Origin: Thermoanaerobaculia bacterium
GTDB taxonomy: Bacteria; Acidobacteriota; Thermoanaerobaculia; Multivoradales; UBA5704
DNA: 64,000 bases
Direction: 5' to 3'
NCBI GenBank assembly: GCA_036503335.1
Contig: DASXXC010000419.1
Location: 20,363-84,362 of the forward strand
In this document: one piece after another, positions 4,960 to 53,118 of the stretch
Layout: each line of letters begins with the position of its first letter
Position numbering within the stretch: the stretch's first letter is position 1
The notes under the pieces: model-generated
Seen by the model: the letters and a program-made list of their open reading frames with translations, nothing else
Told to the model about the DNA's origin: nothing
The model's database searches: none
Translations under genes and position numbers: made by a program

Positions 4960-5754
4960 TCAACTGGCGGAGGAAATCGACCAGCGCCTTGCCAGGGTCG
5001 GGCTCTCCGGAAGAGAGGACGTCGATTCCCAGCCGGCCGAGCACCTGCTGATCGATCGGATTGGGGAAGCCTGGAAGAGATAGGAACGGGGCCGCGCGCC
5101 GTCGCGGCCGACCCGCTCCCAGAGCTTCGCGAGCTTATAGAACAGATAACGGATGTTGAAGTCCGAGAAGCTGTAGCCGATGAAGAGCACGGAACGGCCC
5201 AGGACGTCGGCGCGGAGCTTCAGGTCGAGAGCCGTCTGAAACTCCAGCCGGTCGAAATAGCTCGATTCGGTCAGCACGAGCGAGGAATCGTCGTCGAAGT
5301 CACCATGGAACTTGACGATCTGCGTGACGCCCTCGCGGATCTTCACCATGTCGTCCACCTTGGCGATCCGGGTGTAGCTCCGCTCGATCCGTTCGTGAGC
5401 CGATTCGAGCCAGCGGTCATAATTGGTTGTATAGAGGATCGGGAAATCGAGATCGAGGATGAGGTTGTGGACCTCGGAATCCTCAATGCGGATATCCTTG
5501 GAGTGCCACTCCCGGTCCATGAGACTGCGGAGCGGGCCGATGCTGCCTTTCTTCAATACGTAGTACTCGGCCAGGCTCTGGAAGTTGCCGTAGGAACGGA
5601 AGATGTCGGGATCGAAATCCAGATCCCTGGCCATGAGCGCGATCAACTGGGACCACGAGGGGAGCTTCAATCCCATGGAGACCCCGGCTCCGGCGAAGAG
5701 AATCACCCGCCGCTCCGCGAGGGCGGCGATCAACTCGTCTGATGAATGCGCCAT
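4960..5754 (-). CDS. SIR2-like (SIR2_2/DSR/ThsA-type) domain protein. The C-terminal ~55 aa are probably out of frame; an alternative reading ends at 4916.
   Basis: ILFAGAGVSMGLKLPSWSQL, YTTNYD, KFHGD, SSLVLTESSYF and RSVLFIGYSFSDFNIRYL are the SIR2_2 signature blocks. The annotated tail (SPIRSISRCSAGWESTSSLPESPTLARRWSISSAS) looks unnatural. The -1 frame instead gives PNPIDQQVLGRLGIDVLSSGEPDPGKALVDFLRQLKQGVQASKPPSALL up to a TAG at 4916-4918. Confidence 0.75.
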   Translation of the reverse strand: MAHSSDELIAALAERRVILFAGAGVSMGLKLPSWSQLIALMARDLDFDPDIFRSYGNFQSLAEYYVLKKGSIGPLRSLMDREWHSKDIRIEDSEVHNLILDLDFPILYTTNYDRWLESAHERIERSYTRIAKVDDMVKIREGVTQIVKFHGDFDDDSSLVLTESSYFDRLEFQTALDLKLRADVLGRSVLFIGYSFSDFNIRYLFYKLAKLWERVGRDGARPRSYLFQASPIRSISRCSAGWESTSSLPESPTLARRWSISSAS

Positions 5755-8970: not shown

Positions 8971-9036
8971 CTCCGCGCAGATCTCCAGCGTGGGGATGGC
9001 GAGGGTGCGGGCGGCGGCGTTGTTGGTGGTCAGGGC

Positions 9037-11955
9037 TTATCCCCCAGAATTCTCATCGAGGTCGGGAAAAGCAGCACGCAACTGGGCTGTGAAGCCTTCC
9101 AGTGCGAAAGCGATCCGCTCTTGTGGGTCTCTGAGCCCTTTCTTGAGGAGCCGTTCTTGGGCTTGTTTCAACTCCTCGGAATTAGGCACCAGCTCACCGC
9201 CAAGAAGCTCATTGACCGGATGGATGTTGCTCAATTCCGCCGGGCTCATGCTGCTATCGCCCTTCTTGATCAGCATGCCAATCTTTTCATTGTCTATGAA
9301 GGGTGCAAGGCGATCTGCGCGAAGGTTGCGTATGCGCGAAGCTCTAGAACGTGATTCCTTAGGGTCACCTAGAAAGTTGCTCAAAGTGCTCTTGGCGAGG
9401 AGCGTGGTTATCGCTTGTTTCACGATGCTATGGTCTTGTGTTGCAAGGAATCCGGATTCCGGTGCAAGAAGAACGGGCAATCGAATAAGCCAGCTTTTGA
9501 TCCTTTCTGCTCGTACTGTCACGGCATTGGAGTCCTTAACGAGTTGTTCTATGGCTTCTGCCAATTTAACCCAAAGCTCGGAGCCAATCTCAACCTCGTC
9601 GAGAGAATCGGGAATGGTCTTGAGACCCGTGTCAGTTAAAGATTGCTCCTCGGAACCCGACGTCTCGGATTTGCTCGACTCCTGTGGTGGCGGTGGAGGT
9701 GGCGGATCCGATTTCTCAAAGATTTTGCATATCCCCGCGATCCAGGTATAGAGCAGCAAAGCTCTTTGATGCGGCTCGTCCCCTAGATACCACAGGTCAC
9801 TGCGAAGAGCGGAGTCCCAGATGTGACTGAGCTGATCGAACTCCCAGAAGCTAGTCCAGGCAGGGGTAATCCAAGGGACCTTTACTGCGTCACGAAGCCC
9901 CAGATCCCAGGCAGCTACGGCCCAACCCAGGTCCAGTGAGTTGGGCGAGAGAGAATGAGAGCCGACGATGCCTCCCCACCTCTCCAAGGCCAGGAGGTCA
10001 TGCAGCAGTACGATCAGGGCCTTGGTCCGTTCGGCGATCTCAATCGGGCGCTCTCTTTCCAGGTCCCAAAAGGCCCAGGAGCGCCGATAGCTAGCGTGCA
10101 GCGTGCAATCGTGATCGCGAAACGGGATGATCCTGCCGGGAACGGATATGCTTCGAGCCTCGACAAACCTCATAGCTTGAAGCCATTCCTCGTCTGGGTT
10201 GACTCCGAGCGCCTCTACGAAGCGCTCCCTGTAACGAATTGACAACAGCTCGTCTTCCTCCATGGCCCGGTGAGTCTCCATTCCGACCAAATTTATAAGC
10301 ATGGTGAGGTGTGATTTCCACTTATCCTCGGGGCCATGCGGAGTCTCGCGATGAATAAGGTCACGTATGGAAAACCATAGGTCGGCAATATAGCGTGGAG
10401 TTGCCTTGAGCAGCGTAGAGCCCGTGTAGGGGAAGATGCGTTCCTGGTCCGTTTTTTCTCTGCTCTTCTTTTCGAGTAAATTCTGTTCCTCGAGTGTGCT
10501 TGCTCTTGCGCCAGGTTTGGAGGAGGTCAATTCTTGAAGGCGTACATTGAAGCAAAGGAATTCGCAAAAATTGGGAACAATCTTGCCTGCGATGGATTGT
10601 AGCTTGTGCCTTTTGACCTTTTCGAGTTGTTTCTGTTCTTCGGATTCCTCGGGTTGAGGGGGTTGTTGTTGCCCTGTTTCTTTTCTGTCTGGCTCAAAGG
10701 CCGTTTCAATATCTATCGGAAGCTGCTCAAGGAGGTCTCGGAGTCTTTCTTTGTCGTTATTCCAGCCGTTTTTCGTATCCTCATTTCTGAGGTGGCGAGG
10801 ATGAAAATTGAGAGCTTCCCATACTTTTAATGCTCCCAGCTCAATCCGCTGCCCCGGAGGCACGAGCTTGCGGATCGCATGGCCGGATAAGGATCGCGCT
10901 ATACCTCGGATCTCCGAGGAAGACAGAGACAGGTAATCGGGTGTATAAGCGGCTTCGAGCACCTTGGCAAAGTCGCCGCTCTTCCTCAAGTTGAACATCA
11001 GCTCCGCCATCCGGACGTCACCCAAAACTATGATGAAAAGGCGGGGTGAGGTGACCATGCGGATCAGGTGCAGAAGCTCCAGGGAACGCAGAGGGTTCAG
11101 GTCATAGTCGTCTACCGGGAGAACGAAGAACGGGTTCTTGACGTAACTGCTCTTGCCGAGCTCCTGCGCGAGGTCATCGAGAGCCTTGTTGAGGGCTGCG
11201 TTGATCCCTACACGCGCATCCTCGACGCGAGTGACTTCAGCGGCGTAAGCGTCAGGGTCCAAGGCGCTGGCGCGAGCATCCACGTTACCGTCCCAGGCGA
11301 TGGCAACGTCTGCGGCCAATTTTCGTAGCCCATGTAGAGCCTTTTCCCCCGACGCGAGGCTCAGAAGGCCACTCTGGTAAGTTTTGTCATCCTTTTTCTG
11401 ATTAAAACGAGTAGCGGCTCGGTCAATCCGTGCTAGAATAGCCGCGAGGAGATTGACGGGGCGCGGTAGTGGTTCCATGTCCAAGGGATCAAGCCATACG
11501 AGGCGATCCTGCAGCTCTTCCAGAGATTTCCCTATCGCATCAGGGGTTTTCTGCTGATTATTTGTACTGGCATCCGGACCTTGCGATTTTGTGCCGGCTT
11601 TATCATTCGTAGTTGTCTCTTCTTTTTTGTCTCTTCTCTCGTCGCTGGCCTGGCAAAACCTGTCAGGATCGAGGAAGGCCTCGAACAAAGAAACGAGGAC
11701 CGTGGACTTGCCTGTCCCTCGTTTTCCCGAGACGAAGACCAGCCGGCTCGACCGGAAACGATCCGGGGTGGCGGGGAGGTTGGGAGGGTTCTCCGCGGAC
11801 TTCTGCCTGGCGGCCTCATCGACATCACGTCGAGCGTCTTTCAGCGCGTCGAGAATCTTGCGAAAGGCGCTCTGCTGGGAGGCATTCAGGAGATCCCAGC
11901 GCAGCGGCCGGGCTTCGGGGCGTAGGACGTAAGGCGTCTTCTCGTCGGAAGCCAT
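9037..11955 (-). CDS. rdrA: Large P-loop NTPase, RdrA-like (RADAR ATPase candidate)
   Basis: Walker A motif VFVSGKRGTGKSTVL at about aa 75-88 and Walker-B-like FFVLPVDDYD. It is about 970 aa, the first gene of the string, and the gene body is lower in GC than its neighbours. Confidence 0.65.
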   Translation of the reverse strand: MASDEKTPYVLRPEARPLRWDLLNASQQSAFRKILDALKDARRDVDEAARQKSAENPPNLPATPDRFRSSRLVFVSGKRGTGKSTVLVSLFEAFLDPDRFCQASDERRDKKEETTTNDKAGTKSQGPDASTNNQQKTPDAIGKSLEELQDRLVWLDPLDMEPLPRPVNLLAAILARIDRAATRFNQKKDDKTYQSGLLSLASGEKALHGLRKLAADVAIAWDGNVDARASALDPDAYAAEVTRVEDARVGINAALNKALDDLAQELGKSSYVKNPFFVLPVDDYDLNPLRSLELLHLIRMVTSPRLFIIVLGDVRMAELMFNLRKSGDFAKVLEAAYTPDYLSLSSSEIRGIARSLSGHAIRKLVPPGQRIELGALKVWEALNFHPRHLRNEDTKNGWNNDKERLRDLLEQLPIDIETAFEPDRKETGQQQPPQPEESEEQKQLEKVKRHKLQSIAGKIVPNFCEFLCFNVRLQELTSSKPGARASTLEEQNLLEKKSREKTDQERIFPYTGSTLLKATPRYIADLWFSIRDLIHRETPHGPEDKWKSHLTMLINLVGMETHRAMEEDELLSIRYRERFVEALGVNPDEEWLQAMRFVEARSISVPGRIIPFRDHDCTLHASYRRSWAFWDLERERPIEIAERTKALIVLLHDLLALERWGGIVGSHSLSPNSLDLGWAVAAWDLGLRDAVKVPWITPAWTSFWEFDQLSHIWDSALRSDLWYLGDEPHQRALLLYTWIAGICKIFEKSDPPPPPPPQESSKSETSGSEEQSLTDTGLKTIPDSLDEVEIGSELWVKLAEAIEQLVKDSNAVTVRAERIKSWLIRLPVLLAPESGFLATQDHSIVKQAITTLLAKSTLSNFLGDPKESRSRASRIRNLRADRLAPFIDNEKIGMLIKKGDSSMSPAELSNIHPVNELLGGELVPNSEELKQAQERLLKKGLRDPQERIAFALEGFTAQLRAAFPDLDENSGG

Positions 11956-15923: not shown

Positions 15924-16682
15924 ATGTTTCAGCGCATCGCCCGTGTGTTCAAGTCGTGGATCGGCTACTTCATCTCCTTCGCCGAGGACCCGGAGGTGAT
16001 GCTCCAGGAGTCCATCGAGGAGATGCGCAACACGCTGCCCAAGCTCAACCAGATCCTGATCACCACCCGCGCCACGGTGATCCGCCTGGAGCAGGGGAAG
16101 GCGGCGCTGGAGAGCCGGGAGAAGCAGCTCGTCAATTCGATCAAGGCCGCCCTCGCCGAGGGGAGCCCCGAGTCGCGGCGCGTGGCCGAGGACGACGCCT
16201 CGTCCCTCCAGCAGGTGCGCCAGGAGCTGGCGACCACCAACGATCAGCTCACGGCGGCCTCCAAGGCCTTCGAGAACGCCCAGATCACGGTGGAGGACAT
16301 CAAGCAGAAGCTGCGGCAGAAGATGGAGGAGAGCCGCAAGGCGATCACCGAATCGAAGAACGCCGCGGCCCTGCGAAACGCCGCCAGCGCCATCGCCGAG
16401 CTCGACACCTACGGCACCGCCGCCACCAACGACAAGTACCTGGAGGAGATCCGCCAGCGCTCCGCCGAGGCCAAGGCCGCCGTCGAGGTGGCGACCGGCG
16501 GGCTGGACGTCGAGCGGATCAAGACCGAGCGCAAGGCCCGCCAACTCCAGGCCCAGAGCGTCCTCTCCGAGTTCGAGGTGGAGATGGGCCTCAAGAAGCC
16601 GGACGCCACCCGCGAGGCCGCGCCGTTCCCCACCCAGGCGACGCCCACGGCCACGCCGACCAAGCTGCCCGAGGCGGGGTAG
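15924..16682 (+). CDS. pspA: PspA/IM30/Vipp1 family protein (bacterial ESCRT-III-like)
   Basis: The N-terminus MFQRIARVFKSWIGYFISFAEDPEVMLQESIEEMRNTLPKL matches the PspA/IM30 N-terminal pattern. The rest is long coiled-coil. Confidence 0.8.
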   Translation: MFQRIARVFKSWIGYFISFAEDPEVMLQESIEEMRNTLPKLNQILITTRATVIRLEQGKAALESREKQLVNSIKAALAEGSPESRRVAEDDASSLQQVRQELATTNDQLTAASKAFENAQITVEDIKQKLRQKMEESRKAITESKNAAALRNAASAIAELDTYGTAATNDKYLEEIRQRSAEAKAAVEVATGGLDVERIKTERKARQLQAQSVLSEFEVEMGLKKPDATREAAPFPTQATPTATPTKLPEAG

Positions 16683-16685
16683 CCC

Positions 16686-18446
16686 ATGCCCGAAACCGCC
16701 GCCCCGTCCGCCCCCGTGTTCCTCGACACCCTCCCGCCGTGGGCGTCGGAGCTCGTGCGCGCCGTCAGCGCCAAGCAGTCGAATGCCTTCGTGCTGCACG
16801 GCGTGCCGGCCGATCTGATTCCGGTGCGGGGGCCGGCGGGGCTGCGCTTCCTCTCGCTCGACGACTTCCTGGTGCAGCAGCTCTTCGCGGGGTGGTCGTC
16901 GATCGTCACCTACAACCGGGCCGAGGGGTTGGGCTTCGCCACGCCGGCGGCCCGCAGCCACTTCCAGGACCGGCTGCGGGCCTACGACACGGTCCACGGC
17001 ACCAACTGGGCGGACACCCTGCCGCGTGACGCCCCGAACTGCTTCGCCCTCCTCGACTCCTACTTCCGCCAGTGCGCCTCGGCCCAGCCGTCGCGGCCGG
17101 TGGTGCTGATCCTCCCCTTCGCCGAGACGATCGTCCCGGCGGCCGAGGTGGCCTACCGCACCCCCGAGGACCGCGCCGTGCTGGTCTACCTGCGGAAGTG
17201 GTCGCAGGACCCGGTGCTGCTGGCCAAGAACATCGTGGTGGTGATGGTGACCGAGAGCCTGGCCGAGCTCGATCCCAAGCTCGTCCGCTCGCACTCCACC
17301 ATGGAGATCGAGATCGTCCGCCCCGACCTCCGGGAGCGGCTGACCTACCTGGAGGCGGTGCGCTCGCCGGAGTGGTACGCCGCCAAGTCCGACCTGCCGC
17401 CGGCCCGGCTGGCCGAGGTGACCGCGGGCATGACCCGCGTCCAGATCGGCCAGCTTCTCGACGGCGCCGACGGCAACGGCGAGCGCCTGACCCGCGAGCG
17501 GGCCCGCGATCTCAAGAAGGAGGTCATCGAGACCGAGGGGCTGGGGCTGCTGGAGTACGTCGAGCCCAAGTACGACCTCTCGATGGTGGCGGGCATGCCG
17601 GCGGTGAAGGACCGCCTCCGCCGCGCCGCGCGGGCGATCGCGCGGGGGAACCCGGCGGCGGTGCCCATGGGCTACCTCGTCTGCGGTCCGGTGGGGAGCG
17701 CCAAGACCTTCCTCGTCGAGTGCTTCGCCAAGGAGATCGGCTTCCCCTGCGTGAAGCTGAAGAACTTCCGCTCGATGTGGGTGGGCGCGACCGAGTCCAA
17801 CCTGGAGCGCATCCTCAAGATCCTCTCCGCTCTCACCCCCGTGGGCGTGGTGGTGGACGAGGCCGACGCCGCGCTCGGCAATCGCGACCAGCAGGGGGAT
17901 TCCGGCACCCAGAACCGGGTCTTCGCGCAGATCGCCGCCTTCATGGGGGACACCACCCATCGTGGCGAGATCCTCTGGTTCCTGATCACCGCCCGTCCCG
18001 ACCTGCTGCCGATCGACCTCAAGCGCCAGGGCCGGGCCGAGGAGCACATCCCCCTCTTCTACCCGGAGACGGCGGTCGAGTACGACGAGATCTACCGGGT
18101 GATGCTGAAGAAGCTGGGGATCAAGACCGCGGTGGCCAGCATCACCGACGTGGCGACCGAGGACCAGTACTTGGGCCTCTCCGGCTCGGATCTGGAGGCG
18201 GTGCTGGTGCGGGCCATCCTGGAGGCGGAGGCTTCCGATTCCTCCGAGGTCAAGGCGGAGCATCTCCAGAAAGCTTTTACGGACTTCATCCCTCCCGCCA
18301 ACAGCCGCGAGCGGGAGATGCAGATCCTCTGCGCCGTCCTGGAATCGACCAGCCGCGAGCTCCTGCCGGAGAGGTACCGCACCCTCGACCGCGGGGAGGT
18401 GCAGGGGCGGATCAATGAGATCAAACGGGAGCTGCGGCTGGTCTGA
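16686..18446 (+). CDS. Classical-clade AAA+ ATPase (Vps4/FtsH-type ATPase domain) with a ~330-aa N-terminal domain of unknown function
   Basis: Walker A CGPVGSAKT, Walker B VVVDEADA and second region of homology ITARPDLLPIDLKRQGRAEEHIPL (the ATNRPD..LLRPGRFD pattern). It starts 4 bp after the pspA stop. Confidence 0.85.
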   Translation: MPETAAPSAPVFLDTLPPWASELVRAVSAKQSNAFVLHGVPADLIPVRGPAGLRFLSLDDFLVQQLFAGWSSIVTYNRAEGLGFATPAARSHFQDRLRAYDTVHGTNWADTLPRDAPNCFALLDSYFRQCASAQPSRPVVLILPFAETIVPAAEVAYRTPEDRAVLVYLRKWSQDPVLLAKNIVVVMVTESLAELDPKLVRSHSTMEIEIVRPDLRERLTYLEAVRSPEWYAAKSDLPPARLAEVTAGMTRVQIGQLLDGADGNGERLTRERARDLKKEVIETEGLGLLEYVEPKYDLSMVAGMPAVKDRLRRAARAIARGNPAAVPMGYLVCGPVGSAKTFLVECFAKEIGFPCVKLKNFRSMWVGATESNLERILKILSALTPVGVVVDEADAALGNRDQQGDSGTQNRVFAQIAAFMGDTTHRGEILWFLITARPDLLPIDLKRQGRAEEHIPLFYPETAVEYDEIYRVMLKKLGIKTAVASITDVATEDQYLGLSGSDLEAVLVRAILEAEASDSSEVKAEHLQKAFTDFIPPANSREREMQILCAVLESTSRELLPERYRTLDRGEVQGRINEIKRELRLV

Positions 18447-36092: not shown

Positions 36093-36632
36093 CTATTCCG
36101 GGGGCGCGCACACGACGCCCTGCTGCGTCGCGGCCTGCTGGAGAAGCTGCTGGCAGACGGCGGCCTCCTGGGGCGTGATCTGGAGAAACTGCGTGAGATT
36201 GGCGCTGCAGTAGGGAGGCGCCGCGGACTGGTTCACCAGGACGAAGGTCCCCTCGGGGGTGACCACGCTGGTCACCTGCGAAACGTTGTCGGCGACGCAC
36301 TGCTGCACCGTGACGCTGCCGGACACGATGCTGGCGAACAACGGGATCGCCGCGCCGCAGGGGCAGGTCACCGCGCACGGAGGGGCTTGGCCGCCGCTGT
36401 GCTTCATGAAATTGTCCAGAACCTTGGCGCAGGCGGTGGGAGAGGCCTGCGGCTGCGGGCTGTCGCAATCCATCGCCTCGCAGTAGGCGTTGCAGAGACC
36501 GAAGAGGACCCCGTCCAGGCTGTCACAGACCGTCTCTTCTGACGGAGGCTGGCCGTCCGGCGTTCCCAGCGCCAGCGAGGGGAGGGCGAGAGCAAGGAGG
36601 CCAAGGACGAAGATGAAAAGGTTTTTTTTCAT
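36093..36632 (-). CDS. Secreted Cys-rich hypothetical protein
   Basis: Signal peptide MKKNLFIFVLGLLALALPSLALG followed by many Cys residues. Confidence 0.6.
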   Translation of the reverse strand: MKKNLFIFVLGLLALALPSLALGTPDGQPPSEETVCDSLDGVLFGLCNAYCEAMDCDSPQPQASPTACAKVLDNFMKHSGGQAPPCAVTCPCGAAIPLFASIVSGSVTVQQCVADNVSQVTSVVTPEGTFVLVNQSAAPPYCSANLTQFLQITPQEAAVCQQLLQQAATQQGVVCAPPE

Positions 36633-36963
36633 GATCTCTTCCCTTCAATAGATGAAAACAGATTTGAAAGAAAACTGCAAAACTAACATCGGACCACGAC
36701 TACAGTCTCACTGTAGACGGGCTTGCGGGAACAAACAACGATGGTTGCTTTTTACGATAGGTCTATGTGCCGGATTTCGCGGGCTCTTCCGGATGATCGC
36801 TGGGCGGGCCGGAGTGGAGCGGCTCCCAGGCGGGGGGATCGCTGGCGGGGAAGCTCTCCTCGGAGGCCTCGTCGACAGGGTCGGGCGTCTCTTCGGGGGC
36901 GGGTGGGGCCGGGGTGTCGGGCATGGCGGGTATTGTAGCGCCCGCCATGCCGATCTCACTCTC

Positions 36964-38271
36964 CTACTCCTGGTAGACCTTCAGGTCGGTCGGGCGGAGC
37001 CCCTTGGAGATCATGTCGCGCCAGCGGGTCACGAAGGCGTTGAGATCGAGCCCCATGACCACGTCGCCGGGCGTGCCGCCGTGGACGATGGCGTCGAAGA
37101 GCCGCTGGTTGCCGTCCTTGTAAGTCTCCACGTCGATCAGCTGCATCTGCTTGCCGCGCGCCGCCTGCCATCTCTTCTCGAAGGCCGCGCGGTCGAGGGC
37201 CTGCCAGTACTCGTTCTGGGTCTCCTCATAGCGGAACGCGCCCGCGTAGAGGACGGTCGAGCTGGGCTTGTAGGTGGTGACGTCGATGAGCTGCAGCCCC
37301 TGGGTGTTCTTGAGCTCCTTCACCTTGGCGTCGAACTCCTTGCGGTTCTGGCCCACCCAGAGGGAGTGCTTCTCGCCGAGGTCGCGGAAGAGCCCGGTGA
37401 ACAGGATCTTGCCGCCGCTCGGGTAGATGGTGAGGTTGAACAGCCGCTTGCGGTTGCCGGTGCCCGTCTTCCAGTTCTTGAGGAAGGTGTCCCCGTCCTG
37501 GTTGGCCAGCATGAGGATCGGCTGCTGGCTGCTGTGGAAGATGCCGTTCCAGTAGACCTTCCCCCCCTGCTCGAAGGTGCTGACCTCGGCGAGCTGGAGC
37601 CCCCGGGTCCCGAGGTCGTCCACCCGCTTCTTGAAGGCGGTCCAGTCCAGGCCGACGACGACCGCCCGCCCGTCCGGCTCCGGGCTGAAGACGGCGAGGA
37701 CCTGCGGCGCCTGCGAAGCCGCCGGAGCGGCAGGGGCCACGGCGCCCTTCTTCCCCTTGGCCGGCTTGGCCGGCCTGGCGGGGGCCGCCGGCGGGGGCGG
37801 CGGGGTGGAGATCTCGAGGCTGTCGACGCTCATCCGCACCGTCACCGACCCCTGCGCGCGGCTGTTGATGTCGAGGGTGTACTCGCCGCCCGCGGGCACG
37901 TTGATGGTGGTGGTGTTGAGCTTCTCCCAACTGGTGCCGATCCAGCCCGTGTCCAGCCAGGCCGTGCAGCGGATGTCCGCCGGGAAGGTCTGGATGTCGA
38001 GGCCTTTGTTGATGTTGACGGAGTACTTGGTCTTCGCCTTGGAGCCGGCGAACATCTCGGCCTCCGGCTTGCCCTCCACGCCGCAGCTCAGCTTCCACGG
38101 GCAGGACCCCTTCTGCGGGCACTTCTGGACCAGCATGTCATTGAAGGTGGCCCGGCCCACGGCGGACGCCGGGGACGGGGAGGCCAGGAGGAGCGCTGCT
38201 CCGGCAAGCAAGCACAGCATCCAGCAGACCGGGGCCGGCAGGCGCAGCCCCTTCAACGCGTGAGCTCTCAT
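36964..38271 (-). CDS. Secreted protein with four tandem ~45-aa repeats (GLDW.AF.KR...GLQL.DV.T..)
   Basis: Signal peptide after MRAHALKGL, AAAGGAG Shine-Dalgarno before the ATG at 38271, a Pro-rich linker and internal sequence repeats. Confidence 0.7.
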   Translation of the reverse strand: MRAHALKGLRLPAPVCWMLCLLAGAALLLASPSPASAVGRATFNDMLVQKCPQKGSCPWKLSCGVEGKPEAEMFAGSKAKTKYSVNINKGLDIQTFPADIRCTAWLDTGWIGTSWEKLNTTTINVPAGGEYTLDINSRAQGSVTVRMSVDSLEISTPPPPPAAPARPAKPAKGKKGAVAPAAPAASQAPQVLAVFSPEPDGRAVVVGLDWTAFKKRVDDLGTRGLQLAEVSTFEQGGKVYWNGIFHSSQQPILMLANQDGDTFLKNWKTGTGNRKRLFNLTIYPSGGKILFTGLFRDLGEKHSLWVGQNRKEFDAKVKELKNTQGLQLIDVTTYKPSSTVLYAGAFRYEETQNEYWQALDRAAFEKRWQAARGKQMQLIDVETYKDGNQRLFDAIVHGGTPGDVVMGLDLNAFVTRWRDMISKGLRPTDLKVYQE

Positions 38272-38416
38272 GGACCGACTCCTTTCAACGAGGGGGAGTG
38301 AAGCGTGCTCATGGTAACCCGGGTCGCGTCTCCGCGGAACATGCTTTTTTATCGTGGGCTCAGGAATACGCAAAGGGGGCCCGCAGGCCCCCTCGTTTCA
38401 CGGCTGGGAAGGACGG

Positions 38417-38740
38417 TTACGGGCAAGTGGCCGTCCCGGTGTTGCAGTCGACCGTCCCGCCCACGTAATAGGTGGCGATCCGGCAGGGAATGGGGTCATC
38501 GAGGCACTTCGGCACGAAGTAGAAGTCGACGTCCATCATGCCCCCTCCCATGTCGATGACCTCCGTCTGCATCTTGTATAGCTTGGAGCCCTCGAAGGGC
38601 GCCATCTGGGTCTGGAAGCAGGGGGTGGAAAGGGCGATCTTGGCGGGCTGGCACTGGTTGGCCTGCGCGGTGGGCGCGGCGAGGATGAGGACGAACGCCG
38701 TCACGGCGATTACCATGGCGATCTTGAAGAGCTTTGACAT
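38417..38740 (-). CDS. Small secreted Cys-containing protein
   Basis: MSKLFKIAMVIAVTAFVLILAAPTAQA signal and a strong AAGGAGGTG Shine-Dalgarno. Confidence 0.55.
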   Translation of the reverse strand: MSKLFKIAMVIAVTAFVLILAAPTAQANQCQPAKIALSTPCFQTQMAPFEGSKLYKMQTEVIDMGGGMMDVDFYFVPKCLDDPIPCRIATYYVGGTVDCNTGTATCP

Positions 38741-38917
38741 GATGCACCTCCTTGGAGCGTGCTGCGTGGACAGCTCTACTGTAGAAAACGATGGAAGGCG
38801 CACCCACGCCCGGCCGGGTGGGCGGGCGCGCGTGCCGGGGGGGATTTCGGGGCTGTCCGGAAGGGTGGGGCGGCGGCCCGATCCGGGCCTGCTATCCTAC
38901 CCGCCGGAGACTGATGC

Positions 38918-40210
38918 ATGAGCGAGCTGATTCTGATCGTTGACGACGAGCCGGGGATCCTCTCCACGCTGGGAGGTATCCTGTCGGACGAGGGATATGC
39001 GACCCTGACCACTACCAGCGGCGAGAGCGCGCTGACTCTCTACGAGGAGAAGCGGCCCGCCGTGGTCTTCCTCGACATCTGGCTGGCCGACCGGGACGGC
39101 CTGGAGACCTTGCAGGCCCTGCGCGACGCCGATCCCACGGCCGCCGTGGTGATGATGTCCGGCCACGGCACCACCTCGACCGCCGTCAAGGCGATCAAGA
39201 TGGGGGCCTACGACTACCTGGAGAAGCCCCTCTCCTACAAGCGGGCGGTCGACGCCGCGGCCGGCGCCCTCGAATACAGGCGCACCCTCCAGGCCGGAGC
39301 GGCCCAGGCCGCCCCCGAGCGGCGGCGGGACCGCGGCGAGGCCGAGCGCCGGTTCGCCGCCGCCCCGGACCTCCCCCTCCTGGCCGAGACCGCGCGCAAT
39401 CAGCGGACCCTCCGCCATTCGACCGTGGTCTACGGCTTAGGTCTGCACTCGGGCCAGCGCACCGGCATGGTCCTCCAGCCGCTGTCCGAGAACAGCGGCA
39501 TCCACTTCGTGACCCTCCCCACCGGGGTCGAGATTCCGGCCCACGTGAGCGCCGTGGCCGAGACCGACTACGCCACCACGCTCTCGGGAGAAGGGGAGAG
39601 CATCAAGACGGTCGAGCACCTCCTCTCGGCCCTTCACGCCTATGGCGTGGGGAACCTGCTGATCAAGGTACACGGGGAGATTCCGGTCCTCGACGGCTCG
39701 GCCCTGGAATTCTGCAAGGTCCTGGAGGAGATCGGAGTGGCCGAGCAGGCCGAGCCGCAACGGGAGGTGGTCATCGACCGCCGCTACGAGGTGAAGGGGG
39801 CGGGCGAGAAGGTGCTGGCGATCGAGCCGGCGGACGAGTTTTCCGTCTCCTACCTCCTCCGCTATCCACCCCCTGTGGGCGAGCAGGCCTACGAATTCAC
39901 CCTCACCTCGCAGGAGGCCTACAAACGGGAGATCGCCCCGGCCCGCACCTTCGGCTTCATGAAGGACCTCAAGATGCTCAACGAGCTCGGCCTCGGCTCG
40001 GGCGGGCGCCTCGACAACTTCATCCTGGTGGGTGAGGACGACGTCATCAACACCGAGCTGCGTTTCCCGGACGAATTCGTCCGCCACAAGATCCTCGACA
40101 TCATCGGCGACCTCTACCTCCTCGGATACCCCATCCGCGGCAAGGTCACCGCCCGTCTCACCGGCCACCGCGACAACATCGCGCTGCTGCGGAAGATCGT
40201 CTCCGGGTAA
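38918..40210 (+). CDS. Response-regulator receiver domain fused to an LpxC-type (UDP-3-O-acyl-GlcNAc deacetylase fold) domain
   Basis: REC: ILIVDDEPGI...FLDIWLADRDGLE...MMSGHG. LpxC-like: RTLRHSTVVYGLGLHSGQRTGMVL, TVEHLLSALHAYGVGNL, ARTFGFMKDL and FVRHKILDIIGDLYLLG. Confidence 0.85.
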   Translation: MSELILIVDDEPGILSTLGGILSDEGYATLTTTSGESALTLYEEKRPAVVFLDIWLADRDGLETLQALRDADPTAAVVMMSGHGTTSTAVKAIKMGAYDYLEKPLSYKRAVDAAAGALEYRRTLQAGAAQAAPERRRDRGEAERRFAAAPDLPLLAETARNQRTLRHSTVVYGLGLHSGQRTGMVLQPLSENSGIHFVTLPTGVEIPAHVSAVAETDYATTLSGEGESIKTVEHLLSALHAYGVGNLLIKVHGEIPVLDGSALEFCKVLEEIGVAEQAEPQREVVIDRRYEVKGAGEKVLAIEPADEFSVSYLLRYPPPVGEQAYEFTLTSQEAYKREIAPARTFGFMKDLKMLNELGLGSGGRLDNFILVGEDDVINTELRFPDEFVRHKILDIIGDLYLLGYPIRGKVTARLTGHRDNIALLRKIVSG

Positions 40211-40288
40211 GCGGGCCACGGGCGTTCCGATCTGGGTTAAAGTTACCGCGCCCTTTCCGACGCAGAGAACGATCCTGGAGGAGTACGG

Positions 40289-42286
40289 ATGGACGCTCCT
40301 GATACGAAGTCCCTGCCCGAGAACGCCTATCGGACCCTCGCCCCTGGCGAGACCTACGCCCCGATCGTCCCCCCCGGGGCCCGCCAGGAGGAGGCGACCG
40401 TGCGCTCGGTCGGCTGGGGTCTCTTCCTGTGCGTCGTCTTCACCATCGCCTCGGCCTATTCGGGGCTCAAGGTCGGGCAGGTGATGGAGGCGTCGATCCC
40501 CATCTCCATTCTCGCCATCGGCCTCGCGCGGACTTTCCGGCGCCGCTCGACGCTGCTGGAGAACGTCATCCTCACCAACATCGGCGGCACCTCCGGCGGC
40601 ATCGTCGCGGGGGCGATCTTCACCCTGCCGGCCTTCTACATCCTCCAGCTCTCGCCGCACCCGCTGCAGACCACCTTCATCCTGATCGCCGGCGGCTGCC
40701 TGGGCGTCCTCTTCCTGATCCCCCTGCGGCGCTACTTCGTGCGCGAGACGCACGGCGAGTTCCCCTATCCGGAGGCAACGGCGATCACCGAGGTCCTGGT
40801 CACCGGCGAGAAGGGGGGCTCACAGGCCGCGCTCCTCCTCCAGGCGACGGGCATCGCGGCGGTCTACGACTTCTTCGTCACCACCTTCCAGGTCTGGCGC
40901 GAGACGATCGACTTCCAGTTCATCCCGGGGATGAAGGTGCTCGCCGACCGCGCCAAGCTCGTGCTCCGCTTCGACGCCATCTCGTTCATCCTGGGGCTCG
41001 GCTACGTGATGGGCCTGCGCTCGTCGGCGATCCTCTGCGCGGGCGGGGCCCTCGCGAACTTCGTGCTGGTGCCGCTGGTCTGGTACTTCGGCCGCGACAC
41101 CGCCCTCGCCGGCTATCTGAGCAAGCCGGTCACCCCCAACATGGACGCCGCGGCGATCTTCCGCAACTACGTCCGCTTCATCGGCGTGGGCGCGATCGCC
41201 ACCGCGGGTATCTTCGGCGTCCTCAAGTCCCTGCGCATCATCCAGGGCTCCTTCGCGATCGCGGCCAAGGCGTTCAAGCACGGCGAGGACAGGGCCCAAG
41301 AGCGCACCGACCGCGACATGCCGATCACCACCATCCTGATCGGCGTGATCCTCACCGCGGTCGTGGCGGGGGTCTTCTTCAACACCCTGGAGGGGACCCT
41401 GCTGGCGGCTCTGGTCGGCCTGCTGCTGACCCTGGTCTTCTCCTTCTTCTTCGCCTCGGTGGCGGCGAACGCCATCGCCACCACGGCCCGCAACCCGGTC
41501 TCGGGAATGACGATGCTGACCATCATCATCTCCTCGATCGTGATGCTGCGCTTCGGCCTCTCCGGGACCACCGGCATGTTCTTCGTGATGGCGGTCGCCG
41601 GCATGGTCTGCACGGCGCTCTCGGTCTCGGGGCAGGTGATCACCGACCTCAAGACCGGCTACTGGCTGGGCAATACGCCCGCGGTGCAGGAGCGGGTGAA
41701 GTTCCTGGGCATCCTGGCCTCGGCGGTTGCGGCGGCGCTGACCATCGTGCTGCTGGCGAAAACCTTTCAATTCGGCGAGGCGGCGCCGGGGGATGCCCGG
41801 GTAGTTCTGGCCTCCCCGCAGGCCTCGATCATGAAGGCGCTCGTCCAGGGGTTCATGAGCCAGCAGCCGATCCCGTACGCCCTCTTCGCCGTCGGCGCGG
41901 TGGTCGCCATCCTCGTCGAGCTGCTGGGGATTCCGCCGCTGATCTTCGCGCTCGGCATGTACCTCCCCCTGGAGCTGAACACGCCGGCGCTGGTGGGCGG
42001 CTTCCTCTCCCACTGGCTGAACCGCCGCTCCGAGACCATGGGCGGCGAGGAGGGGCGGAGCGTCCGCGAGCGGGGGGTGATCATCGCCTCGGGCCTGATG
42101 GCCGGCGGCGCGCTGGGCGGCGTCTTCGGAGCGGCCCTGCGCCTCTTCCCCTGGTACCGGGAGGATCTGATCAAGACCCCCTTCTTCGACATCGATTGGG
42201 TCTCGCAGATCGTCTCGGCCCTGCTCTTCGTGGCGCTCTGCGTCTATCTCTGGTACGGATCGCTGAGGCGGCGGCGGGCGGGATAA
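40289..42286 (+). CDS. OPT-family oligopeptide transporter
   Basis: 665 aa polytopic membrane protein with OPT-like blocks (NIGGTSGGIVAGAIFTLPAFY, MFFVMAVAGMV). Confidence 0.85.
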   Translation: MDAPDTKSLPENAYRTLAPGETYAPIVPPGARQEEATVRSVGWGLFLCVVFTIASAYSGLKVGQVMEASIPISILAIGLARTFRRRSTLLENVILTNIGGTSGGIVAGAIFTLPAFYILQLSPHPLQTTFILIAGGCLGVLFLIPLRRYFVRETHGEFPYPEATAITEVLVTGEKGGSQAALLLQATGIAAVYDFFVTTFQVWRETIDFQFIPGMKVLADRAKLVLRFDAISFILGLGYVMGLRSSAILCAGGALANFVLVPLVWYFGRDTALAGYLSKPVTPNMDAAAIFRNYVRFIGVGAIATAGIFGVLKSLRIIQGSFAIAAKAFKHGEDRAQERTDRDMPITTILIGVILTAVVAGVFFNTLEGTLLAALVGLLLTLVFSFFFASVAANAIATTARNPVSGMTMLTIIISSIVMLRFGLSGTTGMFFVMAVAGMVCTALSVSGQVITDLKTGYWLGNTPAVQERVKFLGILASAVAAALTIVLLAKTFQFGEAAPGDARVVLASPQASIMKALVQGFMSQQPIPYALFAVGAVVAILVELLGIPPLIFALGMYLPLELNTPALVGGFLSHWLNRRSETMGGEEGRSVRERGVIIASGLMAGGALGGVFGAALRLFPWYREDLIKTPFFDIDWVSQIVSALLFVALCVYLWYGSLRRRRAG

Positions 42287-42487: not shown

Positions 42488-42867
42488 GAGGAAACTCCTT
42501 TCGTGGCTCATCGTCTCCAGCCTATCTGGGGGACGATAAGGTTACCATACTAAAATTTAGATAACTTGAAAAGACTTGGCTCCAGCGTGCCCGTAATTTC
42601 CACCCCGCCCTACCGGAAATCCCGCCCCACCCGACGGAGCGGGGCGCGTTCTTTGCGCCCGCGCAATAATGAAACCGAGACCTCAGCTTTCCGGTTTCAT
42701 CCCGCCGTTCCCGGTCCTATCCCCGTGGCGATCGTCGCCCCGGGGCCTCCTCCGGAGCCGGGGGTGGCGGGGCCAAATCATCTCGTGGTGACGCGCGGTT
42801 GATTCCTGGAGCTCGACTGCCTACTCTTGTGCCTCGATCCGGTCTCGAAGAGGCCAAGGAGGAAGCG

Positions 42868-43035
42868 ATGAAGAGAGTCGGCAAGCTTACCCTCAACAAG
42901 GAAACCCTAGGCCAGATGGTCGCTCAGCAGGATTCGACCGTCATCGATCCCGTCAACGAGTCGTGCGTCCAGAGCTGCTACATCCAGTCCTGTGGCGGCG
43001 GCTGCACGATCTCGACGGGCTACACCTCGGACTAG
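42868..43035 (+). CDS. RiPP-type precursor peptide (55 aa) with a KLTLNKETL leader and a Cys-rich core
   Basis: MKRVGKLTLNKETLGQMVAQQDSTVIDPVNESCVQSCYIQSCGGGCTISTGYTSD. AGGAGG Shine-Dalgarno before the ATG. Divergent from the other precursor across an AT-rich promoter region. Confidence 0.55.
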   Translation: MKRVGKLTLNKETLGQMVAQQDSTVIDPVNESCVQSCYIQSCGGGCTISTGYTSD

Positions 43036-43347
43036 TACGCCGTCAACCTGAAATGGCGGGTGTTTGTAAGGGCGGCCCTGCGTGGCCGCCCTTACGGAAT
43101 GCGTCATTCCTAGTTGACGATTGACGGCCGCCGCAAATAGCGCTAAATTGAATTTTTGGAATCTTACGGCCTGACCGCCGTGAGAAACCTGAGCGCGGCT
43201 GCATCGCTCTTGCCGGTGCTGACCGTAAACCTCTGGGCCGGATCACTCGGCTCGTTCAGGTGTTCCGACCCTCCTCCCCGGGCAGGACGAGCTTCCTGCC
43301 ATGCCACGCGCCGGGCGCTCGGTGTGCTCGGCGCCAAGGAGAAACCC

Positions 43348-43743
43348 ATGAGCAATCCGGAAGGAAAGAGCGCGACGTACGCCGTCATCGGGTTCGTTCC
43401 CGATGAGGTCGCCCGGTCGATCGGAAAGCAGGGCTATGGCAAGGCGCTCGAGGTCCGCACCGAACGGGGGAAAGATCACGAGGTCATCCATATTCAGCCC
43501 GACCACATCGTGGGGGTCCTGCAGGGGGCCTCGCAAGAGGGGGAGACCGGCGTGCAGGTGATCCTCAAGGAGAACGCAACCGTCCAGACCATGTCTCGCG
43601 GCGTCTCCAGCGAGCTTCGCCTGCGGCCCATCACCGACCTGAGCACCATCATCCACAAGCCTCCGATCTTCGTCATCTATATCGATCCTCACGGTCCGCG
43701 GCTGCCGGATATTCTCAGAGAGCTCAACACCGCCCACCGGTAG
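43348..43743 (+). CDS. Hypothetical protein between the precursor peptide and the radical SAM gene
   Basis: AAGGAG Shine-Dalgarno, coding-like composition, no motif I recognise. Confidence 0.45.
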   Translation: MSNPEGKSATYAVIGFVPDEVARSIGKQGYGKALEVRTERGKDHEVIHIQPDHIVGVLQGASQEGETGVQVILKENATVQTMSRGVSSELRLRPITDLSTIIHKPPIFVIYIDPHGPRLPDILRELNTAHR

Positions 43744-43828
43744 CTTCCGGCTCGCCGCGCCGCTTCGCCGTCGTGCCGGGCGGTCGCCGACCGTCCGGCA
43801 AGTCCTTCATCCGAGGGAGGAGCCTGCC

Positions 43829-45736
43829 TTGAGAGTCCTATTGACCCAGCCGCCCCTCAGCACAAACCCGGAGGTCGGTCCACCGGTGGGCCTCTGCACG
43901 CTGGCCGCCTGGCTGATCCACAAGGGACACGAGGTCTCCGTCCTGGACCTGGACCTCGCCGTCAAAGGCCTTCCATCCGGCCAGGAGGTCTACCGCGGCT
44001 TGCTGGCCAGCGCCGTGAGGGATTTCGCGCCTCAGGTGGTGGGTGTCACCTCGATGTTCAACAACAGCCTGCAGGCGGAGCGTCTCACGCGGACGGTAAA
44101 AGACTGCGATGACTCCATCGTCACCGTCGGGGGCGGCTCTCATTTCGGCGCGCTGACCCTCCAGTCGCTCCGGCGTATCCCCACGCTGGACTACACCATC
44201 GAAGGCGAGGGCGAGGAGGCGTTCGCGGAGCTGCTGGACGCGCTCGCCGCCGGCGCCGCGGTGGCGGACATCCCCCGGCTGTGCCACCGCGTGGATGGCG
44301 AGCCGCGCCAGAACCCCTCCCGCGGCCTGATGGACCTCGCGGAGATCCCGCCGGTCTGGCCCGTGGTGGATGGCTGCGTCGACATCGGCAGATACGCGCG
44401 CACCGTCCCTGCCGGCTCGGCGCGGCGGACCGTCTACATCGAAGTCGGGCGGGGCTGCCCGTTCACCTGTACCTTCTGTGCGACCGCCCCGTTCTGGGAA
44501 CGCAAGTACCGCGTAAAGCCGGTGGCGGCCCTCCTCCAGGAGATCCGCTTTCTTCACGAGCAATACGGATACAACGGCTTCATGCTCGTTCACGACCTGT
44601 TGACGGTCGACAAGGATTTCCTGGACGAATTCAGCGAAGCCGTGCGGGAGTCGCGGTTGCCAGTGGAGTGGATGGCGAACCATCGGACCGACATCAACTT
44701 GTACGGGCTGCTGCCGAAGATGAAGGCGGCGGGCTGCTGGGCGATGTTCTTCGGCATCGAGTCCGCCTCCGAACGCCTGCAGAAGAAGGTACGGAAAGGG
44801 CTAAAGCGCGAGGGCATCGTCTCGACCATCACCGGGCTGGCCGGCCTCGGGATCGCCTCGACGTGCTCTTTCGTTATCGGTTTCCCCGACGAAACGCCGG
44901 AGGAGCTATCGGCCACCGTGGCCCTGGGAGCTGAGCTGAAGCTGCTGGGCGCGGGCATGGTCCAGCTCCATCGCCTGCGTACCTGGCCCCCCGCGCCGCT
45001 CTCCCGCGCCATGCTGCCGGCGCGATTCGACCTGGATTCGCTGCGCCTCGAATACCCGTTCCTCGACGTGCCCGAAGCGGACGTCGCCGCGATCACGGCG
45101 GATCCGGAGTTCTTCGCCGGTTACTTCGCCCCCTCCACCACGGCGGGTACCTTCGCTCAGATGGCGCAGGTCGAGCTGTTCTTCACCCACGCCGTCCACA
45201 TGGCGTCCCTGACGGTCGCCGTAATGAGCCGGCTGGCTGGCGGGAGCCTCATCCCCACCTTCTATGACGTGCTGGCGCGGAGAGGAGGCATCACCCGGCA
45301 GGAGATGGAGGCCGATCCGAACAGCCCATGGCCGGCCTGGCGCGCGTTGCGCCCCCGCCTAGAGGACTGGGTCGCCATCCATCCGGCCTTGGAAGATTGG
45401 CAGCGAAAGCTCGTCCTGGGCGCCATAGACTACGAGGAGAGTCGGCTGCGATTCGTCAACAGCAACGGGGCGGAGCGGGATGGCATGGCCGCCGGCGGCG
45501 AGGACTGGGCCGCGTTCGTCTCCACGGTGGACATCGCCACGCTGTTCGACCACCTACGCAACGGAGGCGCCTTACTGCCGGACCTCGTGAGCGACTGGGC
45601 GGTAGTGTTTGTGCAGACGGGCGGCGGTGCCTTCGGCGCCTATATGACCGACGTGGAACGTCTGCCGGAGCTCAGTGAGCGTCCATCCCTGATGGCGACG
45701 AACGCGCGCTCCGCTCCCGCACCTCCTCCGACGTGA
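43829..45736 (+). CDS. B12-binding-domain radical SAM protein (candidate RiPP maturase)
   Basis: N-terminal Rossmann-like region (VVGVTSMFNNSLQAERLTRTVKDCDDSIVTVGGGSHF) consistent with a cobalamin-binding domain (inference from its position N-terminal to the rSAM core), then the CPFTCTFC (CxxxCxxC) radical SAM cluster motif. Confidence 0.85.
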   Translation: MRVLLTQPPLSTNPEVGPPVGLCTLAAWLIHKGHEVSVLDLDLAVKGLPSGQEVYRGLLASAVRDFAPQVVGVTSMFNNSLQAERLTRTVKDCDDSIVTVGGGSHFGALTLQSLRRIPTLDYTIEGEGEEAFAELLDALAAGAAVADIPRLCHRVDGEPRQNPSRGLMDLAEIPPVWPVVDGCVDIGRYARTVPAGSARRTVYIEVGRGCPFTCTFCATAPFWERKYRVKPVAALLQEIRFLHEQYGYNGFMLVHDLLTVDKDFLDEFSEAVRESRLPVEWMANHRTDINLYGLLPKMKAAGCWAMFFGIESASERLQKKVRKGLKREGIVSTITGLAGLGIASTCSFVIGFPDETPEELSATVALGAELKLLGAGMVQLHRLRTWPPAPLSRAMLPARFDLDSLRLEYPFLDVPEADVAAITADPEFFAGYFAPSTTAGTFAQMAQVELFFTHAVHMASLTVAVMSRLAGGSLIPTFYDVLARRGGITRQEMEADPNSPWPAWRALRPRLEDWVAIHPALEDWQRKLVLGAIDYEESRLRFVNSNGAERDGMAAGGEDWAAFVSTVDIATLFDHLRNGGALLPDLVSDWAVVFVQTGGGAFGAYMTDVERLPELSERPSLMATNARSAPAPPPT

Positions 45737-52071: not shown

Positions 52072-53118
52072 CTAGATCCCGGCAGCGATCGCGTCGGCGT
52101 CGCGGCTGCCGCGGTCTGTCGCCTGCTGCTCGAGTTGCAGCCGGGTGCGGGCCACAGCCTCGCGAAGGTGCCGCTCCAGCAGGTCGCGCGGCGGGAGCTC
52201 GGTCAGGTACTCGGCCACATGGATGCCTCGGGGCTCGAGCTCGAGCACCTCAACGGTTTCGCGCTTCTTGCCGGCACAGAGGATGAGGCCGATGGGTCTC
52301 TCTTCCCCCTTCTGCCGTTCGTGGCGGTCGAGCCAGCGTAGGTAGAGCTCCATCTGGCCGGCATCCGCGGGCTTGAAGTCGCCGATCTTCAGCTCGATGA
52401 CCACCAGCCGCCGCAAGCGGCGATGGTAGAACAGGAGATCCATGTAGTAGTCGTCGCCATCCAGCGTGATGCGCTTTTGGCGTTCGACGAAGGCGAAGCC
52501 GATGCCGAGCTCCAGGAGAAAGGATTCGATCTCGCGTAGCAGAGCGTCCTCCAGATCTCTTTCGCCGTAGGTATCCCGCAGGCCGAGGAAGTCGAGCACA
52601 TAGGGGTCCCGGAAGACCAGGTCGGGAGTGAGCTGGTCTCGTTCGCGCAGCGCCTGGATCTCCTGCGCGATGAGCTTTTCGGGCTTCTTCGAGAGGGCGG
52701 TGCGCTCGTAGAGCATGCTGTCGATCCGGGACCGCAGAGCCCGGACGCTCCAGCGCTCGATGCGGCACATCTCGGCGTAGAATTCGCGCTGAAGCGGGTC
52801 TGTCAGGGGGAGGATCTCCTTGAAGTGGCTCCACCCCAATTGTCGCGACAGTGTAGCGACAATCTGGGGGTCGGTGAATGAAGAGGCGAACTGCACCATC
52901 CGGCGAAGGTTTTTCTCGCCGAAGCCGCGTCCGAATTCGAGCTCCAATTGTGCGGACAGCGCCAGCACGATCTCGGCGCCATACTCCGCACGCTTCTCCT
53001 GGAGAATCTCCCGCTGGATGCGCTCACCGACCTGCCAGTAGAGTAGCGTCAGGCCGGTATTGACCATCCGGGCGGTCTGCTGCCGGGCTTCGAGGATAAG
53101 GTCTCTCACCTCGGCCAA
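52072..53118 (-). CDS. YhcG/DUF1016-family protein (PD-(D/E)XK nuclease fold)
   Basis: N-terminal NTGLTLLYWQVGERI and LSWSHF blocks, plus C-terminal DGDDYYMDLLFYHRRLRRLVVIELKIGDF (a D...ELK PD-(D/E)XK core). Confidence 0.8.
   Translation of the reverse strand: MAEVRDLILEARQQTARMVNTGLTLLYWQVGERIQREILQEKRAEYGAEIVLALSAQLELEFGRGFGEKNLRRMVQFASSFTDPQIVATLSRQLGWSHFKEILPLTDPLQREFYAEMCRIERWSVRALRSRIDSMLYERTALSKKPEKLIAQEIQALRERDQLTPDLVFRDPYVLDFLGLRDTYGERDLEDALLREIESFLLELGIGFAFVERQKRITLDGDDYYMDLLFYHRRLRRLVVIELKIGDFKPADAGQMELYLRWLDRHERQKGEERPIGLILCAGKKRETVEVLELEPRGIHVAEYLTELPPRDLLERHLREAVARTRLQLEQQATDRGSRDADAIAAGI

Follow-up and report, generated by a model that had tools for sequence, protein, structure and literature searches.

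The 64,000-nucleotide stretch of DNA analyzed here (the window; positions 20,363 to 84,362 of contig DASXXC010000419.1, assembly GCA_036503335.1, from a Thermoanaerobaculia bacterium of the Acidobacteriota) carries a gene in which the receiver domain of a response regulator is joined to LpxC, the deacetylase of lipid A synthesis. A single unbroken open reading frame (ORF) encodes a 430-aa protein in which a variable linker connects a CheY-like receiver to a complete LpxC domain (Table 1). An earlier note on this DNA, made from the sequence alone, had described a receiver fused to an LpxC-type domain at this position; its coordinates were correct, and Pfam placed both domains within the one ORF. 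Neither a sigma-70-like promoter nor an intrinsic terminator was found in a scan of positions 38600-40500.

The same note had allowed that the fusion might be an artefact joining two genes. A public protein cluster (P0001) holds a 100% identical two-domain protein, and both domains were present in all 120 best-listed protein clusters (identity 84-100%). Furthermore, a scan of one genome per species returned at least 562 stretches encoding a relative, the best 80 of which were analyzed in detail, and 79 of these 80 loci carry the full-length fusion, the exception (L071) being truncated at a contig end. Because P0001, the 120 clusters, and the 79 loci carry the same two-domain protein, an artefact of assembly, gene calling, or gene merging was ruled out: the architecture is conserved across hundreds of independent genomes.

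Table 1. Features of the receiver-LpxC gene (positions in the window)
Feature	Position	Strand	Basis
Receiver-LpxC fusion gene, 430 aa, stop codon included	38918..40210	+	ORF list, Pfam, NCBIfam, public protein P0001
GGAG ribosome-binding site, 8 nt before the ATG	38906..38909	+	Read from sequence
Receiver (REC, CheY-like), NtrX/NtrC type, residues 5-112	38930..39253	+	PF00072, NF051870, solved-structure matches
Asp53 codon, predicted phospho-acceptor	39074..39076	+	Invariant in 71/71 receiver-bearing members
Extended alpha5 helix (to ~129) and disordered Ala/Arg-rich tether, residues 113-161	39254..39400	+	AlphaFold2, identity, dN/dS
LpxC (UDP-3-O-acyl-GlcNAc deacetylase) domain, residues 162-428	39401..40201	+	PF03331, TIGR00325, structure match
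Glu233-His234 (E77/H78, P. aeruginosa numbering), general base and first zinc ligand	39614..39619	+	Alignment to P. aeruginosa LpxC; 72/72
Thr344-Phe345 (T190/F191, P. aeruginosa numbering), ARTFGF oxyanion/substrate-binding motif	39947..39952	+	Invariant in 72/72
HKILDIIGD helix: zinc ligands His390 and Asp394; Lys391, Asp398	40085..40111	+	Invariant in 72/72
His417 (H264, P. aeruginosa numbering), general acid	40166..40168	+	Invariant in 72/72

The LpxC half retains the catalytic residues of the stand-alone enzyme

The LpxC domain was matched by Pfam PF03331 over model positions 1-267 of 268 (E 4e-86, 289.3 bits against a cutoff of 27), and the NCBIfam lpxC equivalog TIGR00325 was passed with 260.5 bits (cutoff 187.25). 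Its closest solved relatives are the LpxCs of P. aeruginosa (E 1.5e-49), A. aeolicus, and E. coli, to which the domain is 35-39% identical. An AlphaFold2 model of the protein compared with solved LpxCs in Foldseek gave a root-mean-square deviation of 1.4-1.8 Å and a TM-score of 0.85-0.95, normalized to the target.

Alignment to the P. aeruginosa enzyme places its zinc ligands (H78, H237, and D241) at H234, H390, and D394 of the fused protein. The general base is E233 (E77 in P. aeruginosa) and the general acid H417 (H264), while T344, F345, K391, and D398 align with T190, F191, K238, and D245; the catalytic roles given for these nine residues follow the LpxC literature. All nine were invariant in the 72 family members drawn from genome loci, and the residues of the HKILDIIGD helix were also unchanged between the long and short forms of the family described below (alignment A1). 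The earlier note had recognized this helix as HKxLD, which is H390-K391-I-L-D394, and had considered that the zinc ligands might be missing, which they are not. Of 41 columns conserved at ≥90% among 67 stand-alone LpxC representatives, 39 are also kept in the fused clade (at ≥80%), and the other two show conservative changes only. Residues peculiar to the fused clade occur at just two positions, G183 and K250, the latter being Glu in most stand-alone LpxCs.

The protein thus shares with the P. aeruginosa and A. aeolicus enzymes the two-domain fold, the His-His-Asp zinc site, the Glu base, the His acid, and the Thr, Lys, and Asp helpers. It differs from stand-alone LpxCs in its approximately 160 extra N-terminal residues (receiver and tether), in the two clade-specific residues, and, as shown below, at its C terminus. 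Since the zinc ligands, the catalytic residues, and 39 of 41 conserved columns are retained, a pseudo-enzyme was ruled out, and the LpxC half is, as far as its sequence tells, apparently a fully functional LpxC. A new substrate is unlikely because the equivalog cutoff is passed and those 39 columns are kept, and the suggestion of a non-lipid-A substrate in the earlier note was therefore not supported.

The receiver is of the NtrX type

The receiver was matched by PF00072 with an E value of 8.6e-27 (93.9 bits, cutoff 30.2). The acidic pair D9 and D10, together with D53, S81, K103, and P104, were invariant in all 71 receiver-bearing members, with Tyr or Phe at position 100, and the pocket and switch residues, D53 included, were also invariant in an 87-sequence alignment spanning several phyla. 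The phosphorylation pocket is intact, and phosphorylation is predicted on Asp53.

Among NCBIfam receiver families, the top match was NtrX (NF051870) with 108.5 bits, about 30 bits above AtoC, PgtA, and NtrC; the next-best match had 77.9 bits. The match is confined to positions 4-123 of the 452 in the NtrX model, for which membership requires a full-length score of >600 bits; Pfam detected neither an AAA+ nor an HTH_8 domain in the protein, and the full-length NtrX layout is lacking. The best solved matches of the receiver were 4d6x, deposited as a Fis-family bacterial regulatory protein and which we take to be Brucella NtrX, and 5m7n, deposited as a nitrogen assimilation regulatory protein. 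Judged by these matches, the receiver belongs to the NtrX type and descends from a response regulator of that kind. The earlier note had missed this origin.

The two domains are joined by a disordered tether, and the protein lacks a C-terminal tail

The AlphaFold2 model of the 430-aa protein has a mean predicted local distance difference test score (pLDDT) of 85.9 and a predicted template modeling score (pTM) of 0.70. It places a long alpha5 helix at residues 107-129, followed by residues with a pLDDT of <50 (129-143). Mean identity is 47% in the linker against 81-83% in the two domains. The ratio of nonsynonymous to synonymous substitution rates (dN/dS; Nei-Gojobori, approximately 2,100-2,200 pairs, giving rough values at a median dS of 0.6-0.86) was ~0.24 for the receiver, ~0.27 for the LpxC domain, and ~0.76 for the linker. 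The first two values indicate that receiver and LpxC are both kept by selection, while the linker is nearly free to vary.

At the other end, the match to TIGR00325 extends no further than model position 272 of 297, and only 13 residues follow the catalytic His417. In E. coli, the FtsH degron of LpxC is carried by the C-terminal tail (PMC12444477). Because the present protein ends 13 residues past His417, this degron tail is missing, and it differs in this respect from enterobacterial, FtsH-regulated LpxCs, whose degron tail is non-polar. This bears on an explanation in which phosphorylation would set the abundance of the enzyme, with the receiver acting as a conditional degron or adaptor handle, by RssB-type logic, through which LpxC is degraded or protected. 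LpxC proteolysis is known in E. coli (FtsH/LapB), an alphaproteobacterial LpxC expressed in E. coli was degraded by Lon (PMC12444477), a protein without the C-terminal degron would need another handle, and the model contains a disordered tether. These points are indirect, however, and the fusion gene has no linked gene for a protease or an adaptor, so that we regard such abundance control as quite improbable.

The fusion belongs to a family of NtrX-derived proteins

Most of the named clusters among the best-listed 120 are labeled Thermoanaerobaculia or Acidobacteriota, and nearly all of the best 80 loci come from Thermoanaerobaculia-type metagenome-assembled genomes (MAGs). Complete chromosomes carrying the fusion include OY970330.1 (8.78 Mb, L027), OZ243123.1 (5.12 Mb, L038), and CAVUHL010000003.1 (8.38 Mb, L017). 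Across Thermoanaerobaculia the fusion is 64-96% identical; two of the 80 loci, at 48% identity, are from Syntrophaceae and "Deltaproteobacteria" MAGs. With a profile search, the architecture was also recovered at 46-51% identity from Candidatus Binatia and other MAGs, and other named carriers were deltaproteobacterial MAGs, Entotheonellia, and Nitrospinota. In a library clustered at 50% identity, with ~1,768 proteins at E ≤1e-30, fused forms made up 43 of the 117 best matches that have a complete LpxC domain.

Many relatives are larger than the window protein. Long forms (650-739 aa) consist of Response_reg, Sigma54_activat, AAA_lid_14, and LpxC, and other forms (490-505 aa) of Response_reg, HTH_8, and LpxC; AAA+ or HTH_8 domains were seen, for example, in P0121, P0393, and P0136. 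The position of the tether is thus occupied in relatives by an AAA+ module and/or a Fis-type helix-turn-helix (HTH). The long forms align with nearly the entire NtrX model (positions 3-452 of 452, 335-349 bits) and pass the lpxC cutoff too, and one of them carries the name NtrX in JGI annotation. None of 18 long forms has the GAFTGA loop, and only one of them retains the acidic Walker B pair, from which we conclude that these AAA+ modules are NtrX-like and sigma-54-independent.

In a neighbor-joining tree of LpxC domains only, all fused forms made up one clade apart from the stand-alone enzymes in 29 of 40 bootstraps, which is moderate support, from a sample picked by full-length score and hence favoring fused proteins. 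Short and long fused forms were interspersed within this clade. The simplest reading is a single fusion of a whole NtrX-like regulator to LpxC followed by repeated loss of the AAA+ and HTH modules, with the window protein as the fully reduced form. On this view, LpxC would have been joined once to an NtrX-like regulator with receiver, degenerate AAA+, and Fis HTH, whose gene lay beside ntrY; several lineages would then have shed AAA+ and HTH repeatedly, leaving receiver, tether, and LpxC, and in Thermoanaerobaculia the gene would additionally have moved away from ntrY. The family illustrates a stepwise decay from a transcription factor to a pure enzyme-regulatory module.

Of four apparent stand-alone LpxCs nested in the fused clade, three were rejected. 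P0175 is a frameshift-fragmented fused gene with Binatia-type synteny, and P0156 and P0194 are fragments from contigs of ~900 bp; P0206, on a deep branch, is genuinely stand-alone. Four loci from long-read "MFD" metagenome assemblies (L072, L076, L078, and L093) have a fused gene that appears split by frameshifts, and in L093 the neighboring ruvB and ntrY were split as well. Such split fusions give rise to false stand-alone LpxC calls, as with P0175, and are a trap for surveys of domain architecture.

Some distant relatives are encoded directly downstream of an NtrY kinase

In a locus with a long form (L081) and in Binatia-type loci with short forms (L082-L089), the gene directly upstream on the same strand encodes an NtrY kinase with NtrY_N, HAMP, PAS, HisKA, and HATPase_c domains. 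Seven sampled contexts, of the Binatia type and the long form, show an NtrY kinase in this place. L091 likewise has an upstream kinase of this layout, although no NtrY_N match is on record for it. Compared over their full length, the NtrYs of L081 and L082 share 44% identity. As a separate ntrX is absent from the operon, its response regulator is the LpxC fusion. In most of the Binatia-type loci (L082-L089), a DUF2203 protein of ~146-149 aa, whose function is not known, is encoded 3-25 bp after receiver-lpxC, suggesting an ntrY/receiver-lpxC/DUF2203 operon in these genomes.

The resemblance to NtrX accordingly extends from the receiver itself to relatives that keep the receiver, a GAFTGA-less AAA+ module, and a Fis HTH directly downstream of ntrY. 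The window protein differs in that it has neither the AAA+ nor a DNA-binding domain, ntrY is not adjacent, and its output is an enzyme rather than transcription.

Flanks of the related loci were read 10 kb to either side. No conserved operon partner was found there, the commonest neighbor family occurring in 9 of 81 loci, and no lipid A genes were found anywhere else in the window. Such isolation, together with the clade-specific G183 and K250, would fit a specialized paralogue, in which a canonical lpxC lies elsewhere in the genome and the fused copy serves another substrate or provides signal-specific extra lipid A capacity. We think this improbable, given the equivalog score, the complete set of catalytic residues, and the 39 conserved columns, as well as the identity of the fusion across Thermoanaerobaculia and its occurrence in the at least 562 stretches of species-representative genomes. 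A second lpxC was not seen within 10 kb in any of the 80 loci, which is a test of low power, and the nearest named stand-alone LpxCs come from Nitrospirota and NC10 rather than from Acidobacteriota, which is uninformative about Thermoanaerobaculia.

In the window, an OPT oligopeptide transporter gene lies 78 bp downstream of the fusion gene. Just upstream and divergent from it, three apparently secreted proteins are encoded at 36093-38803 (-). Two of them (36093-36632 and 38417-38803) are small and Cys-rich, with signal-peptide-like N termini and no family match, and the third (36964-38373) is a 469-aa protein with polyglycine-hydrolase-like BTRD1 repeats. These genes are not conserved beside the fusion in other genomes. 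In a locus of an orphan sub-lineage (L092, 1-7329), receiver-lpxC lies ~5 kb downstream of ftsZ. This recalls the proteobacterial ftsZ-lpxC (envA) arrangement at the end of the dcw cluster and may be a weak hint at a housekeeping role.

A model in which phosphorylation of the receiver controls LpxC

The intact LpxC and the intact receiver, taken together, make it reasonably probable that the fused protein is an LpxC controlled by receiver phosphorylation. The proposal of the earlier note, a signal-regulated deacetylase that tunes envelope synthesis, thus remains the best reading of the sequence. Asp53 would be phosphorylated by a histidine kinase whose gene lies elsewhere in the genome and which is most plausibly of the NtrY type, and phosphorylation would change the alpha4-beta5-alpha5 face and the long alpha5 helix. 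This, in turn, would alter receiver dimerization or the contacts between receiver and enzyme, so that the activity of LpxC (or its stability or location) is switched and lipid A flux is set after translation. Such a switch, which may be activating or inhibiting, would take the place of the enterobacterial FtsH/LapB degron control, whose C-terminal tail is missing here. More tentatively, the fused protein may be the sole LpxC of Thermoanaerobaculia, Binatia, and allied lineages, with an NtrY-type kinase phosphorylating the enzyme's own receiver.

Several observations weigh against this model. The earlier note had proposed to look for a cognate histidine kinase nearby, and none was found: the 64-kb window contains no histidine kinase gene, and an NtrY ortholog was present within 10 kb in none of the 80 related loci (motif search and tblastn with NtrY). 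Kinase-like ORFs with a generic kinase core occurred in only 4 of the 80 flanks, at inconsistent positions. Because no kinase lies near the Thermoanaerobaculia gene, the kinase is inferred only from distant relatives (46-51% identity). Support for the fused clade is moderate, with the sampling bias mentioned above. Finally, AlphaFold2 gave confident domains and no confident packing between them. As the tether is disordered and the pTM is 0.70, no regulatory interface between receiver and enzyme can be claimed.

The orphan status of the gene, which is shared by Thermoanaerobaculia and at least two other sub-lineages, might reflect loss of the kinase. In that case, the receiver would no longer be a switch and would serve as a constitutive module for dimerization, scaffolding, or localization, for example by docking LpxC to a membrane protein. 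The decay of NtrX modules within the family, where AAA+ domains lack GAFTGA and mostly the acidic Walker B pair, points in the same direction. Pseudo-receivers usually lose the acidic pocket, however, whereas the phosphoryl-transfer and switch residues are invariant in more than 70 orphan members and across phyla, and the dN/dS of the receiver is low (0.24). A receiver that has ceased to switch is therefore unlikely in our view.

The fusion is a response regulator with enzymatic output, of a kind that can be compared with CheB (receiver-methylesterase), PleD and WspR (receiver-GGDEF), and RpfG (receiver-HD-GYP). These proteins likewise have an N-terminal receiver, a flexible tether, and a catalytic domain. 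Their outputs are signaling enzymes, whereas LpxC is an enzyme of biosynthesis, acting in an essential envelope pathway. The CheB receiver works by occluding the catalytic site, and PleD and WspR are activated through dimerization; by analogy, the receiver presumably gates LpxC catalysis by CheB-like occlusion or PleD-like dimerization. Natural LpxC fusions are also known in the bifunctional LpxC-FabZ proteins (NF009667), and P0240 and P0253 (~440-460 aa) are examples among the matches. There, however, the partner is a C-terminal enzyme of the pathway, while here it is an N-terminal signaling domain, and the window protein scored 200 bits against the NF009667 cutoff of 465.

Published control of LpxC comprises proteolysis through FtsH/LapB/YejM in E. 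coli, activation by MurA in P. aeruginosa, Ght in Neisseria, and Lon, as well as transcriptional control by NtrYX and ChvGI in alphaproteobacteria, and these systems target LpxC because it is the committed step (PMC12444477). None of them has a sensor domain covalently attached to LpxC. The terms "response regulator" and "fusion" are both absent from this 2025 review of lipid A regulation, which describes the picture of LpxC control in other bacteria as still taking shape (PMC12444477). No description of a receiver-LpxC, LpxC-NtrX, or LpxC-NtrY fusion was found in the searchable library; the architecture is visible in public annotation, where it is labeled simply LpxC. A receiver on LpxC would be a new, direct, and easily testable mode of regulation, and our results suggest a direct, undescribed on/off control of outer-membrane synthesis in several little-studied phyla.

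The NtrX-type receiver connects the fusion to earlier reports on NtrYX, which controls lpxC transcript and lipopolysaccharide (LPS) levels in R. sphaeroides and C. crescentus (PMC7240162, PMC12444477). Loss of NtrYX in R. sphaeroides raised the lpxC transcript 8.8-fold and increased LPS, and the region upstream of lpxC lacks an NtrX site (PMC7240162); D. vulgaris has an NtrC-family regulator with lpxC as its single target (PMC3333781). By linking the NtrY/NtrX system physically to LpxC, the fusion provides independent genomic support for the effects of NtrYX on the envelope and on lpxC reported in alphaproteobacteria. If the model is true, the fusion would be a "Rosetta stone," and the long puzzling envelope phenotypes of NtrYX would reflect an ancient direct link between NtrX and LpxC.

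Other features of the window

A region of lower G+C content (0.54-0.61 versus ~0.68-0.72 elsewhere) covers 6346-11955 (-), together with 4960-5754 and 3923-4816. It encodes an 874-aa protein with a PADLOC match to the RADAR deaminase RdrB (1.3e-45), adjoined by a 972-aa ORF with a very weak RdrA match (7.6e-5), as well as a ThsA-like SIR2 protein (PADLOC, 1.4e-30) with an Exo_endo_phos nuclease alongside. The region is probably a defense island; a RADAR role of the 972-aa partner gene is unproven. At the edge of the lower-G+C region, a 295-aa ORF (850-1737, +) has a weak match to an IS1-type DDE transposase (4.8e-6), which suggests a mobile-element remnant. Elsewhere, a YhcG/DUF1016 PDDEXK nuclease (52072-53118, -) matches the PADLOC candidate defense family PDC-S02 (1.9e-129).

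A B12-binding radical SAM enzyme is encoded at 43829-45736 (+), with the maturase ApyD of ribosomally synthesized and post-translationally modified peptides (RiPPs) as its best NCBIfam match (213 bits, below cutoff). Upstream of it are a small ORF with a Cys-rich tail (...NESCVQSCYIQSCGGGCTISTGYTSD) and an unannotated ORF of ~131-195 aa, so that 42799-45736 (+) is a possible RiPP gene cluster. Finally, at 15924-18446 (+), a PspA/IM30 gene is directly followed by a gene for a 586-aa AAA ATPase and preceded by an unannotated 253-aa ORF; the PspA/IM30 and ATPase genes may constitute a membrane-stress module.

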